From: an uncultured Clostridia bacterium
GTDB lineage: Bacteria; Bacillota; Clostridia; TANB77; CAG-508
Direction of reading: 5' to 3'
DNA: 64,000 nucleotides
Assembly (NCBI GenBank): GCA_947628215.1
Contig: CANQYZ010000004.1
Coordinates: 14,460 to 78,459 of the forward strand
Both the position numbers and the translations under genes were made by a program. The notes under the pieces were generated by a model. It was not told the DNA's origin. It saw nothing but the letters and a program-made list of their open reading frames with translations, and made no database searches. Of this stretch, positions 60,916 through 63,982 are shown piece after piece (position 1 is the first letter of the stretch; each line of letters opens with the position of its first letter).

Positions 60916-62307
60916 ATGAAAAAGAAATTATTAGCAGTAGCTACTTTAGTATTAGCTATTTGTCTATGTTTAACAATTTCTGTTAAAGCTGAAGCTAGCA
61001 CAAAAGTTGCTAAAATTGGTAATACAGAATATGAAAGACTAGATGCAGCATTAGCAGCAGTAAAGAATAATGAAACAATCGTATTACTTCAAAATTTAGA
61101 AGTACCAAAAGAAGGTGGAGATAACGGCCATATTAAGAAAAGTGGAGATCCAGTAAACTTCACATTAGATTTAGGTGGATTTACAATAACATCTAAAGGA
61201 GAAGGCAAAGATGCAATTGTTCTTGAAGATGAAAGTACAGTAACAATCAAAAATGGAACAATTAAAAATGAAGGTGAAGATTGTGCTATTTTAATCCAAA
61301 AAGGTACAGTTATATTAAAAGATAATATAACATTATCAAATAAAGAAGGTGCTAAATATGGTACTGTTCAAGTTGGATATAAAAGCGGAAATACAAGTGG
61401 TCACTTAAAAATAGAAGATGGTGCAAAAATAAATGGTGGTGTAACTGTATCTCAAAGCAGTTCAGTTGAAATGACAGGTGGAGAAATTGTAAATCCTAAA
61501 GGATTTGCTATTTCTGGAAATGGATCAAATACAGGAAACACAACTATCACAGTTAAAGGCGGAACTTTAGAAAGTAAAAGTTCAGCAGCTATATATCATC
61601 CACAACAAGGAACTCTTAATGTAAGTGGTGGAATTTTAAAAGGTGCATTATTTGGTATAGTTGCAAGAAGAGGAACTGTAAATGTAACAGGAGGAAAAAT
61701 TACAGCATCAGGTACAGGAACAGCTTCTGTTGGAGATGCTACAGAAGAAGGAGCAAAAGTTGAATTACCAGCAGGTACAGCAATTGTATTAGATAATAAA
61801 TCTACAGGATATGGTGACGATGTTAAAGCTAGAGTTACTGGTGGAGAATTTGAAGCTACAAATGATACTGCTATAGTATCTTTAGAAGATACAGATCATA
61901 GCGATTTTGAAATTTTAGGTGGAGCTTATAATAAAGCATTTGACCAAGAATATATTAATGCAGAAAAAGCAGAAGTTAAAATTGGTGATAAATACTATGT
62001 TGGAGAGGATGCTACAAAAGCAGTTACAGAAGCTATAAAAGATGAAAAAGCAGTTATAGAAGTACTAAAAGGAGACGTAACAATTAAAGGTGCAGTACCA
62101 GGAGTTACAGTTGTAAATTCAGGAAACGGAGATGTAACTGTAAATGGAATGGACGTTACAACTGAAAAAGTAGTAGTTCCAGCAGCAGAAGATGAAGAAG
62201 AACAAGATGATACACCAAAAATGGGTACAGTAAATGTATTTACAGTAGCAGGTGCTATATTAGTAGTTTCAGCTTTAGGTGTAGTAGTTTTAAATAAAAG
62301 AAAATAA
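60916..62307 (+). CDS. Secreted right-handed beta-helix-like (Gly/Thr/Val-rich) surface protein with a C-terminal DDTPKMGT motif, TM segment and LNKRK tail.
   Basis: Signal peptide. Repeated GGxIxNxxG / TVNVTGG strands. C-terminal tripartite anchor. Confidence 0.55.
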   Translation: MKKKLLAVATLVLAICLCLTISVKAEASTKVAKIGNTEYERLDAALAAVKNNETIVLLQNLEVPKEGGDNGHIKKSGDPVNFTLDLGGFTITSKGEGKDAIVLEDESTVTIKNGTIKNEGEDCAILIQKGTVILKDNITLSNKEGAKYGTVQVGYKSGNTSGHLKIEDGAKINGGVTVSQSSSVEMTGGEIVNPKGFAISGNGSNTGNTTITVKGGTLESKSSAAIYHPQQGTLNVSGGILKGALFGIVARRGTVNVTGGKITASGTGTASVGDATEEGAKVELPAGTAIVLDNKSTGYGDDVKARVTGGEFEATNDTAIVSLEDTDHSDFEILGGAYNKAFDQEYINAEKAEVKIGDKYYVGEDATKAVTEAIKDEKAVIEVLKGDVTIKGAVPGVTVVNSGNGDVTVNGMDVTTEKVVVPAAEDEEEQDDTPKMGTVNVFTVAGAILVVSALGVVVLNKRK

Positions 62308-62341
62308 TTGAATTTAAAATAGAATTATTTAACATAAACTG

Positions 62342-62376
62342 GTAATAGAGCAAGATTCCTTGCTCTATTATTTTTG
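62342..62376 (+). terminator. Rho-independent terminator.
   Basis: aatagagcaag-attc-cttgctctatt followed by a T-run. A nearly identical copy follows the paralog at 63947..63982. Confidence 0.55.
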
Positions 62377-62507
62377 AGTTACAAAGATTGACTTTAAGCC
62401 ATATAGAGTGATAAAATATCTCTGATATAAAAAGAAAATTTTATGTTTGTCTTTTATATTTTAAATTTAATATATATATTATTTATTTTTAGAAAGGGGA
62501 AAATGAC

Positions 62508-63911
62508 ATGAAAGAAAAAGTCTTAAAAGTCGTTTTTGTAATTGTTTGCGTATTAGCTACTATCATGGCTGCTAAGTCTATATATGCTGCTGATGGAACA
62601 GCTAAAACAGAAGCTGACTTACAAAATGCAATTACTAATGCAACAGACGGACAATTAAAATTAACTGAAGATTATGTAATCAATAATACAGTAAACATTA
62701 CAGCAAATTTAACTCTTGACTTAAATGGTCATACAATTTCAACAGGTGAATCTTTTAACGAAGATCATCATGCAATGCTTGAAATGAATACAGAAAATCT
62801 TAATGTTACTATCAAAGACACAAGCGCTGCAAAAACTGGTGAAATAAAATTTGATAAAGGTACTACTTCAAATAATGTAATTGATGTATGTGCTTTATTT
62901 GTAAAACAAGGAACAGCTACAATAGAAAGTGGTAAACTTACATCAACTAACCCAAACAACAAATGGGGTGTTATAGAAATAGGTCATGGATCAAATGACA
63001 ATGCAACTCAAGGACATGTAGTACTTAAAGGTGGAACAATATCATCTGAACGTTTTGGTATAGTTCTAGAAAAAGGAACTTTAGATGTACAAAAAGGTGC
63101 AACTGTAAAATCAACATCTGCAACTATTATGACTAAAGTAAATGATGGAAACAATCCAGGATTTGATGATACTAAAATAACTATCTCTGGTGGAACAATC
63201 GAAAGTGATGGAAATAATGCAGTGCAAAATAGAAGCAAAGGAGAGGTAGAGATAAGTGGTGGTAACATCACTGGTGCTACAGCTGTATATACTGCAGGTG
63301 GAAAATTAGAAATCACAGGTGGAACTTTAACAGCAAATGGACATGCCGTAAAAAATGGATATGAAGATGGTGTAGAAAAAAGTGCTGCAGTTGTTGTAAA
63401 TAGTAAGAAAGATGATAAAACTTCTGCAACAATAAATGGTGCTACAATAAAATCTACTACAGATCCAATTATGTATACAGTAAAAGAAGATAATGCTGAT
63501 GAACCACTTACTGTTGAAAATGCAGTAAGTAACAGAAGAATTGATTCTGCATATTTAAATACTGAAGTAGAATTAGGAATAACAACATCTTCTGGAACTA
63601 TGTATTATACAGGAAAACCAACAGATAAAAATATTGAAAATGCCTTAAGTAAAGCTAAAAAAGGTGATACTATAACAGTATTAGATGGAGCATTAGCATT
63701 AGAAGGTGTTGAAGTAGGTGTTATAGTACTAAATAAAGGAAAAGATGATGTTACAGTAAACGGAACAGAAGTTAAAACTGGAGCAAGAGTTGTAGTAGAA
63801 GAAGAACAAGATGATACACCAAAAATGGGTACAGAAAATCTTTTTGCTATAGCAGGATTTGTAGCAGTAGTAACATTAGCAGGAGTTGTTGTTTTAAATA
63901 AAAGAAAATAA
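62508..63911 (+). CDS. Paralogous beta-helix-like surface protein with the same DDTPKMGT-TM-LNKRK C-terminus.
   Basis: Near-identical 5' leader, RBS (aaagggga) and 3' terminator to the 60916 gene. Same domain organisation. Confidence 0.55.
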   Translation: MKEKVLKVVFVIVCVLATIMAAKSIYAADGTAKTEADLQNAITNATDGQLKLTEDYVINNTVNITANLTLDLNGHTISTGESFNEDHHAMLEMNTENLNVTIKDTSAAKTGEIKFDKGTTSNNVIDVCALFVKQGTATIESGKLTSTNPNNKWGVIEIGHGSNDNATQGHVVLKGGTISSERFGIVLEKGTLDVQKGATVKSTSATIMTKVNDGNNPGFDDTKITISGGTIESDGNNAVQNRSKGEVEISGGNITGATAVYTAGGKLEITGGTLTANGHAVKNGYEDGVEKSAAVVVNSKKDDKTSATINGATIKSTTDPIMYTVKEDNADEPLTVENAVSNRRIDSAYLNTEVELGITTSSGTMYYTGKPTDKNIENALSKAKKGDTITVLDGALALEGVEVGVIVLNKGKDDVTVNGTEVKTGARVVVEEEQDDTPKMGTENLFAIAGFVAVVTLAGVVVLNKRK

Positions 63912-63946
63912 TTGAATTTATTTAAGATAAAAATTATTTGAAATAG

Positions 63947-63982
63947 GGTAATAGAGCAAGGTGTCTTGCTCTATTACTTTTG
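63947..63982 (+). terminator. Rho-independent terminator, the paralogous copy.
   Basis: aatagagcaagg-tgt-cttgctctatt followed by a T-run. Confidence 0.5.

Follow-up and report, generated by a model that had tools for sequence, protein, structure and literature searches.

What does the sequence DDTPKMGT do at the C-termini of two neighbouring surface-protein genes, and what governs the expression of these genes? Both questions arise at the right-hand end of a 64,000-nt stretch of contig CANQYZ010000004.1 from an uncultured Clostridia bacterium (assembly GCA_947628215.1). This whole stretch is here denoted the window, and all coordinates are positions within it. The two genes are denoted gene 1 and gene 2, and a gene together with its promoter, leader and terminator is denoted a cassette (Table 1). 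A preliminary description of this DNA took DDTPKMGT for a distinct signal standing in place of the LPxTG motif of sortase substrates, and saw in the locus a pair of genes with duplicated leaders and terminators. The explanation that we consider probable, taken as a whole, is that the genes belong to an array of cassettes whose products carry signals for a class B sortase, a form with Met among them, and whose leaders are switched by a (GA)n repeat.

Two paralogous genes encode predicted beta-helix surface proteins

The preliminary description had placed here two paralogous genes for secreted proteins of beta-helix-like character, and the analysis bears this out. The open reading frames (ORFs) are exact, the two products are 33% identical (BLASTP, E = 5e-43) and the model obtained is beta-helical. 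Both proteins start with Sec-type signal peptides, MKKKLLAVATLVLAICLCLTISVKA/EA in gene 1 and MKEKVLKVVFVIVCVLATIMAAKSIYA/AD in gene 2, in which the n-region is read as basic and the core as hydrophobic, with cleavage at VKA/EA or IYA/AD. The Pfam family Beta_helix (PF13229, cut-off 25.9 bits) scored 25.2 bits with the gene 1 product, just below the cut-off, and gave no match with the gene 2 product. An AlphaFold2 model of the gene 1 product (predicted local distance difference test score 87.1, predicted template modelling score 0.82) forms a stack of short strands over nearly the whole chain. Foldseek matched this model weakly (E at least 0.004, template modelling score about 0.3-0.4, about 10% identity) to iota-carrageenase, the L. 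reuteri SRRP adhesin, AlgG and pertactin, all of them right-handed beta-helices. Both gene products are predicted to be right-handed beta-helix surface proteins, and by analogy their role is probably that of an adhesin or a glycan-binding protein. The SRRP binding region (5nxk) and pertactin (1dab) share with them the predicted fold and display on the cell surface, but the structural matches are weak and the gene 1 model shows no recognised ligand or catalytic residues.

A full-length search with the gene 1 product yielded 55 homologues, none named by its source except for one Synerg-CTERM entry. The more distant beta-helix homologues have LPXTG-like ends such as DDTPKTG, DSTPKTG, NPKTGD and LPTTGD, and those of Synergistota have Synerg-CTERM; tails of such unlike anchoring kinds suggest that the passenger domain is modular. 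Three proteins (P0022, P0023 and P0053) combine the beta-helix passenger with Synerg-CTERM (…SSSSGCN…; the name is that given by NCBI to a Cloacibacillus protein), suggesting that the passenger has been exchanged between unrelated surface-anchoring systems across phyla. In another group (P0028-P0042), beta-helix homologues of about 350-385 amino acids end in …KGSPKTFDAG, a hydrophobic helix and KKRED. Here Phe stands where Gly is expected after SPKT, a further non-canonical variant of the sorting signal; one cluster of this group comprises 103 member sequences.

The C-terminal tails read as Met variants of a clostridial sortase signal

Both genes end, as previously described, with a shared motif, EEEQDDTPKMGT, a hydrophobic segment of 19-20 residues and LNKRK. 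In the gene 1 product DDTPKMG occupies residues 431-437, and the AlphaFold2 model places a helix at 441-460, after which comes NKRK. The hydrophobic segment, VFTVAGAILVVSALGVVVL, followed by NKRK, is of the kind that a sorting signal requires. Neither gene has the xPxTG motif expected 17-45 residues from the C-terminus, with its Thr preceding the scissile bond; TPKMG stands at this place in both. Their closest homologues carry QDDTPKMGTVNVF… or KD[DP]TP[ND]TG[VI]DVF… on otherwise identical tails.

A profile made from four tails, mostly of the Met type, was searched against 1.84 billion representatives and retrieved 42 tails. Thr occupies the scissile position in 31 of them and Met in 11, with no other residue found; the Met bias of the profile inflates the share of Met, so that its proportion is not meaningful, while the absence of a third residue is. 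The motifs were TPKTG (20 tails), TPKMG (9), TPNTG (5), TPGTG (3), TPDTG (2), and TPTMG, SPKTG and TPATG (1 each). The Met type appears on four or more tail backgrounds, and the tail nearest to a Met-type one is often of the Thr type. Within the tail family the residue before the motif Pro is Thr, rarely Ser or Val (SPKTG, VPKTG). The consensus D-[DN]-T-P-x-x-G-T that had been proposed is wrong in detail, since its final T varies, as TPKMGA and TPKMGV show.

The curated anchor model LPXTG_anchor (NCBIfam TIGR01167, cut-off 15.9 bits) accepts natural Thr-type tails of the family, two of which scored 16.6 and 17.5. The gene 1 tail scored 14.2 bits, with the helix part only aligned, and an in-silico change of M to T raised the score to 20.6. 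The Met alone is therefore the cause of the rejection of the window tails. The tripartite layout of a sortase substrate, claimed for these proteins from the outset, is upheld by paralogues that carry TPNTG, TPDTG or TPKTG on the same tail. The same motifs, in paralogues and relatives, make of DDTPKMGT a one-position variant of xPxTG where a separate signal had been assumed. As judged from these comparisons, the tripartite tail of both genes is a sortase-type sorting signal, and TPKMG is a Thr-to-Met variant of the clostridial [DE]x-T-P-x-T-G signal, not a new sorting system. A literature search found no description of TPKMG or LPxMG as a sortase motif.

We considered whether the tail could be the signal of a non-sortase system, such as an exosortase- or archaeosortase-like CTERM. 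The motif does fail LPXTG models, and the Synergistota homologues carry Synerg-CTERM instead (P0022, again by its NCBI name). Against this, searches of NCBIfam and Pfam with both genes, at E up to 1, gave no CTERM-type domain (Firmicu-CTERM, PEP-CTERM and others), canonical TPxTG is found in paralogues that share the tail, and a class B sortase gene adjoins such substrates in relatives (see below). We regard this alternative as highly improbable.

Two further surface proteins of the window bear on the signal. The gene at 41390 had been credited with a canonical IPDTG; rightly so, since its product (41390..41743, a secreted protein of 117 amino acids) passes TIGR01167. With this gene in addition to the TPKMG genes, the genome carries at least two flavours of xPxTG-type signal. 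The 41390..41743 product also weakly resembles the EF2685/EF0750 sortase-dependent family. A third surface protein, at 23088..24426, was thought to share the DDTPKMGT signal through its ending DNTPLLGT, a case that turned out weak. The region is not a single ORF, being split by a frameshift into 23088..23423 and 23395..24426. The latter ORF encodes a Cna_B domain, and its KDNTPLLGT fits the acidic-xTP…G frame of the family; DNTPLLGT sits 17 largely charged residues before the hydrophobic segment, which makes the match a weaker one. A homologue search with 23395..24426 was uninformative, returning only the protein itself and one weak Cna_B match with an SPMTG tail. DNTPLLGT may be a decayed or divergent signal.

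Class B sortases adjoin Thr- and Met-type substrates in relatives

The loci of relatives (L-numbers) come from species-representative metagenome-assembled genomes (MAGs) and from metagenome contigs. In three Clostridia MAGs (L002, L004 and L005) a gene with a DDTPKTG tail is directly followed by a gene for a TLSTC protein of about 265 amino acids. The adjoining proteins are class B sortases, with 160-171 bits on TIGR03064 (cut-off 153.75; L002 160, L005 170.9 and L011 171.2 bits). Their best solved relatives by sequence are 5gyj, at the top, 6kyc and 4ux7, deposited as putative peptidase C60B or sortase B. A sortase-seeded scan detected the same pairing of substrate and sortase in about 25 further metagenome loci, with D[ED]TPKTG, DDVPKTG and similar motifs. 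The Met form is paired likewise: in L011 and L012 an orthologous class B sortase gene (171 bits) comes after a run of three genes with DDTPKMG ends, and in L013 a sortase fragment is followed by a beta-helix gene ending in DETPKMG. The preliminary description had asked for the class of sortase; the answer from relatives is class B, beside Thr- and Met-type substrates alike, and the window itself gave none.

The Met-type trio and its sortase form an operon-like block in L011 (8874-13579; also in L012), just upstream of rpsB-tsf. Nowhere is a Met signal more clearly paired with a sortase in nature than in this block, which could well supply both enzyme and substrates. Across the five loci examined first, sortases with TLSTC…DGRF accompanied Thr substrates and those with TLTTC…DGRL Met substrates. 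The distinction failed in the larger scan, where TLTTC sortases stood beside DDVPKTG (L037-L040) and DGRL sortases beside Thr substrates (L033 and L035).

The most economical reading of the tails is that TPKMG would be a functional variant of a class B sortase signal, of the (S/P)PxTG kind known from C. difficile. A class B sortase encoded elsewhere in the genome would cut after T or M and link the protein to peptidoglycan, Met in TPKMG being an accepted alternative to Thr at the scissile position. We infer that the Met-form proteins of the window are cleaved in this way. Several observations weigh against cleavage after Met. To our knowledge, it has been demonstrated for no sortase. The 64 kb of the window contain no TLxTC protein and thus no sortase, and the metagenome scan revealed no sortase residue that varies with the Thr or Met of the substrate. 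When C. difficile SrtB was modelled with PPKTG, the hydroxyl of the scissile Thr hydrogen-bonded Arg217 at the catalytic site (PMC5118464); Met would lose this contact and is therefore unusual at this position.

The loss of the Arg contact would also fit an alternative in which Met tails are not sortase substrates, and the proteins stay tethered by the C-terminal transmembrane helix, coexisting in one cell with wall-anchored TPxTG versions. The rejection of Met tails by the curated anchor model (14.2 versus 15.9) points the same way, and the presence of Thr- and Met-type tails within one array could mean two destinations. However, lost constraint should leave a mix of residues at the scissile position, where the 42 tails have only T or M, and the acidic patch, DDTP and G are strictly kept in Met tails. 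In L011 and L012, moreover, all three genes before the sortase are of the Met type, so that, with membrane tethering, no neighbouring gene would provide the sortase with a substrate. Natural enzymes also offer precedent for a hydrophobic residue at the scissile position, since several streptococcal class A sortases prefer Leu there (LPxLG) in vitro (PMC8248031). We judge membrane tethering unlikely, and return to the class B sortase signal.

The closest known system is that of the C. difficile SrtB substrates, for instance CD2831 with PPKTG and CD3392 with SPKTGD (PMC4155245, PMC5118464, PMC4591827), where the motif is (S/P)PxTG (PMC4155245). The tripartite arrangement of xPxTG, helix and basic tail is the same, Lys is likewise common just before the scissile residue, and the substrates are likewise adhesin-like surface proteins of a gut clostridial organism. 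The sortases of the relatives are also of class B and are most similar to C. difficile SrtB structures. Unlike in C. difficile, the residue before Pro is here Thr, preceded by a conserved acidic D[DNE], the scissile residue alternates between Thr and Met, and the substrates form a large tandem array of paralogues. A further difference is that the C. difficile substrates have a cyclic di-GMP (c-di-GMP) riboswitch, of which Rfam detected none here; in its place is a predicted attenuator with a simple sequence repeat.

The genes open a tandem array with near-identical flanks

By comparison with relatives, genes 1 and 2 are the first two of a long tandem array of self-contained expression cassettes. 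The match between the 3' ends of the two genes starts at GAAGAAGAACAAGATGATACACCAAAAATGGGTACAG, takes in the last 13 codons in the motif region, the stop and the hairpin of the terminator, and reaches TTACAA[AT]GATTGACTT, which is the -35 box of the sigma-70-type promoter of the next cassette. The near-identical terminators reported earlier are thus real, and the promoters of the two cassettes are near-identical too. Near-identical leaders are real over about the last 55 nt before the ATG; beyond this the gene 1 leader, about 245 nt long and not 60, has elements that gene 2 lacks. The leader of cassette 2 aligns by its first ~20 nt and last ~60 nt with the ends of the long leader, the middle being absent.

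Since the window breaks off at the -35 box of a further cassette, the array continues past its edge. In L008 and L009 the sequence beyond this box runs into a long leader with (GA)7 and a tail-bearing gene for 306 amino acids. Near-identical metagenome contigs have gene 1 adjoining gene 2 (L009 and L010) and gene 2 followed by genes for products of 306, 464 and 482/492 amino acids (L008). Four genes, for 492, 498, 398 and 350 amino acids, stand in a row in L006, and all these array genes share the tail family. In total the close relatives carry at least nine cassettes with the same promoter, leader and terminator, as expected from the earlier suggestion that the paralogous family extends past the right edge.

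In L006 (3737-6009; also in L007) the 398-aa gene, with TPNTG, is separated by 23 nt from the 350-aa gene, with TPKMG, and no terminator or promoter lies between them. A Thr-type and a Met-type protein would therefore come under one and the same long-leader switch. For several metagenome contigs, L009 and L010 among them, one end falls within the (GA)n tract or the repeated leader, which fits assembly breaks at sequence that is repeated or heterogeneous in length.

The final 84 nt agree at 98-99% between genes whose passenger domains agree at 31-57%, and such near-identical ends on divergent passengers indicate recombination or gene conversion of the ends. In our explanation recombination would keep both tails and flanks uniform across paralogues that have diverged elsewhere. 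The type of tail, Met or Thr, does not track the relatedness of the passengers, and the tail alleles are mosaic. The potential for recombination and variation ascribed to the locus is borne out by these mosaic alleles and by the (AG)11 tract in the leader of gene 1. Duplication of the leaders was, however, not the whole story: they form part of a probable switch of (GA)n repeat, leader ORF and terminator that had been overlooked.

The leader of gene 1 has the layout of a repeat-dependent attenuator

The putative promoter of cassette 1 aligns with the TTGACT-18-TGATAAAAT promoters of other long-leader cassettes. Downstream of it are a leader ORF of 20 codons, a perfect dinucleotide repeat within this ORF and an intrinsic terminator, ahead of the conserved proximal leader (Table 1). 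The (AG)11 tract is the sole perfect dinucleotide repeat in the 64-kb window. On the 3' side of the repeat there follows the conserved sequence GCTATACTTCTAA, then a small hairpin, and then the terminator.

We compared 11 long leaders from two lineages, that of the window and a rabbit-gut MAG (L003). All share the layout ATG, 10 codons, (GA)6-15, GCTAYACTTCTAA and terminator, the ATG being exactly 10 codons before the repeat in every one. This layout precedes most cassettes in close relatives and five cassettes of the distant and diverged L003. The number of repeat units ranges from 6 to 15 across cassettes, and at one locus two samples differ by a single GA unit (9 versus 8), the other 228 aligned bases being identical; the stop there moves from -37 to +16. 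The leader terminator is kept in all long leaders with G-U and A-U changes. In gene 1 the leader ORF stops 45 nt upstream of the terminator in the current frame, 37 nt upstream with one repeat unit less (n-1), and at +16, inside the hairpin, with one unit more (n+1), at a TAG at 60837..60839. Over the 11 leaders the stops of the three frames lie at -44 to -47, at -37 to -39 (or -3) and at +11 to +17 relative to the terminator stem; those of L003 are at -47, at -39 or -3, and at +11 to +17. In the leaders of L003 a well-spaced GAGG stands 7-8 nt upstream of the ATG of the leader ORF.

These data suggest a model in which slippage of (GA)n would shift the reading frame of the leader ORF and make the long-leader cassettes phase-variable. 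In two frames the ribosome would stop 37-45 nt before the terminator, which would form and leave the gene largely OFF. In the third frame the ribosome would run into the hairpin and block its folding, so that transcription would continue and the gene would be ON. Gene 1 (n = 10, stop at -45) would be in the OFF state, its switch probably turning expression on and off at random, by analogy with the system described below. Gene 2, a natural "terminator-deleted" cassette, would be expressed constitutively. Translation of the leader ORF and ON/OFF switching are here read from the conserved layout.

The switch has points against it as well. In the window lineage a GGAG stands 12-14 nt from the ATG of the leader ORF (14 in gene 1), a spacing longer than optimal. 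The counts of 9 and 8 GA units at the polymorphic locus come from assemblies of about 5x coverage and could reflect assembly error. The leaders are too alike for tests of covariation or codon usage, with compensatory changes in 3 of 63 pairs. Finally, the leader RNA is predicted to form a long helix (60709..60725 with 60793..60806) within which lie the (GA)n tract and the start of the leader ORF; the switch leaves the role of this helix unexplained. The long helix is conserved in paralogous leaders and might add a structural layer to the switch.

Such a helix could instead be the mark of a structured regulatory RNA, an attenuator controlled by a protein or ligand in which (GA)n is a spacer or binding site and the leader ORF is fortuitous; expression would then be regulated and not phase-variable. 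A conserved small hairpin (CTTC-n-GAAG) beside the long helix, a fold z-score of -2.26 and the poor spacing of the ribosome-binding site in the window lineage are in keeping with this. However, a structural spacer would hardly tolerate a range of 6-15 repeat units, and a structured RNA leaves unexplained the exact distance of 10 codons from ATG to repeat, the good ribosome-binding site in the rabbit-MAG lineage, and the stops of two frames before the terminator with the third frame ending inside it, seen in 11 of 11 leaders. No Rfam family matched the leader at the gathering threshold, and matches at E up to 10 were at chance level. Rejected with the same Rfam result was a leader riboswitch, for instance for c-di-GMP as in C. 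difficile sortase substrates. We consider the structured-RNA explanation quite unlikely, and retain the (GA)n switch.

Known switches of similar design

A direct experimental precedent for the switch is found in pil1 and pil3 of S. gallolyticus, where a leader peptide grows longer as GCAGA repeats slip, so that a premature terminator is disrupted by the ribosome (Danne et al. 2014, PMC3894217). In pil1 the OFF frame stops 39 bp short of the hairpin and the ON frames stop inside or past it (PMC3894217), so that order and geometry match those of the gene 1 leader. Both systems, ours as predicted, have a promoter, a leader ORF with a repeat unit of a length not divisible by 3, an intrinsic terminator and a gene for a sortase-dependent surface protein; in both, the short frame ends roughly 40 nt ahead of the hairpin and the long one inside it. 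Either system would be locked ON if its terminator were lost, for which the naturally deleted leader of gene 2 may be compared. The systems differ in the repeat, the dinucleotide (GA)6-15 here and the pentanucleotide (GCAGA)13-23 there, and in the host, Clostridia and Streptococcus, and ours is known from sequence alone. The switch is here multiplied before many cassettes of one array, which would allow combinatorial expression. In the searchable literature we found no second organism with a pil1-type switch.

A related solution is that of CwpV of C. difficile, where site-specific inversion of a DNA element in the leader, carried out by a recombinase, gives rise to a terminator. Both cases, the present one as proposed, concern a clostridial surface protein turned ON or OFF according to whether its 5' leader has an intrinsic terminator. 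Unlike CwpV, the present switch would rely on slippage of a repeat acting through translation, with no inverted repeats or recombinase involved.

Other features of the window

Matches to Rfam at the gathering threshold in the window are ordinary features of a Firmicute chromosome (Table 1). Two large ORFs with overlapping ends, of 914 and 559 amino acids, occupy 148-4558 and have no Pfam match above threshold; the 914-aa ORF contains several repeats of a …PE[YL]x[DE]FL… segment. Many pairs of adjacent ORFs on the same strand resemble single genes cut by a frameshift. By eye, the genes split in this way encode a peptidase, a sulfatase-/lipoteichoic acid synthase-like membrane protein, an M23 peptidase, gpsA, a cysteine desulfurase, a glycosyltransferase-like membrane protein and the Cna_B protein. 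They reflect either an error-prone assembly or widespread pseudogenes, and limit the trust to be placed in any single frameshift or repeat count in the window.

Table 1. Features of the window, with the two cassettes first (coordinates in nt; aa, amino acids)
Feature	Position	Strand	Basis
Putative sigma-70-type promoter of cassette 1: TTGACG, 17-nt spacer, TG-n-TAGAAT	60644..60672	+	Consensus scan, 10/12 matches, extended -10 TG
Predicted leader ORF, 20 codons, MLKPRNVVTVERERERELYF in current frame	60716..60778	+	ATG conserved in 11 leaders
Perfect (AG)11 / (GA)10 dinucleotide repeat in leader ORF, proposed slipped-strand switch	60745..60766	+	Repeat scan, comparison
Predicted intrinsic terminator (attenuator): GGATAGACT, loop, AGTCTGTCC, TTTTT	60821..60851	+	Hairpin 60821..60846, -14.7 kcal/mol, in minimum free energy and centroid folds
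AT-rich conserved proximal leader with ribosome-binding site AAAGGGGAAA (the ~60-nt leader of the preliminary description)	60852..60915	+	Near-identical before gene 2 and every cassette of relatives
Cassette 1 gene (gene 1), 463 aa, secreted predicted right-handed beta-helix, sorting tail	60916..62307	+	ORF, Pfam, AlphaFold2, Foldseek
Terminator of cassette 1, fourteen-pair hairpin and T-run	62341..62376	+	Duplicated after gene 2
Promoter of cassette 2: TTGACT, 18-nt spacer, TG-a-TAAAAT	62388..62417	+	Same sequence after every cassette terminator of relatives
Short leader of cassette 2, 90 nt, deletion derivative without leader ORF, (GA)n or attenuator	62418..62507	+	Alignment to long leader
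Cassette 2 gene (gene 2), 467-aa paralogue, same tail (EEEQDDTPKMGTENLF...LNKRK)	62508..63911	+	ORF, BLASTP
Terminator of cassette 2	63948..63981	+	Aligns with cassette 1 terminator
-35 box (TTGACTT) of next cassette, cut by window edge	63994..64000	+	Identical sequence continues in L008/L009
M-box (Mg2+) riboswitch	4969-5126		Rfam
tmRNA	7874-8222		Rfam
T-box leader before pheS/pheT	13220-13455		Rfam
tRNA	22816-22887	-	Rfam
Apparent split ORF pair	19357-20422		By eye
Apparent split ORF pair	22189-22783	-	By eye
Apparent split ORF pair	23088-24426		By eye
Apparent split ORF pair	25757-28733		By eye
Apparent split ORF pair	35043-36817		By eye
Apparent split ORF pair	38820-39804		By eye
Apparent split ORF pair	52378-53557		By eye

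Significance of the Met signal and the repeated switch

Both components of the locus are of known kinds, class B sortase signals on the one hand and phase variation by simple sequence repeat, leader peptide and terminator on the other. What appears to be new, from the comparisons made here, is the recurrent Met at the scissile position, sortase-adjacent substrates included, the use of a dinucleotide repeat in the switch, and the deployment of this switch copy after copy before an adhesin-like array in uncultured gut Clostridia. We put forward only tentatively, as possible though short of an even chance, the joint reading that a clade of gut clostridial class B sortases naturally processes TPKMG and that at least nine adhesin-like genes are each gated by a (GA)n attenuator.

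If true, catalysis would do without the Thr hydroxyl, to which a part in organising the active site of SrtB is ascribed. A natural Met next to a probable sortase offers a ready test of the need for this hydroxyl in class B enzymes, and the peptides EQDDTPKMGTVN, EQDDTPKTGTVN and EQDDTPKAGTVN would serve to compare cleavage after Thr and Met. Met-type signals could also yield orthogonal ligation tools. With TPKMG tails falling just under the cut-off of the LPXTG-anchor model, probable wall-anchored families of gut Clostridia are left unnamed.

On the side of regulation, the state of the switch would be predictable from the number of repeats modulo 3, and could be scored in metagenomes. A mechanism known from one Streptococcus species would extend, multiplexed, to uncultured gut Clostridia. 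A single clone could then make many combinations of surface coat, a Gram-positive counterpart of the phase-variable surface repertoires of Bacteroides, Neisseria and Mycoplasma.

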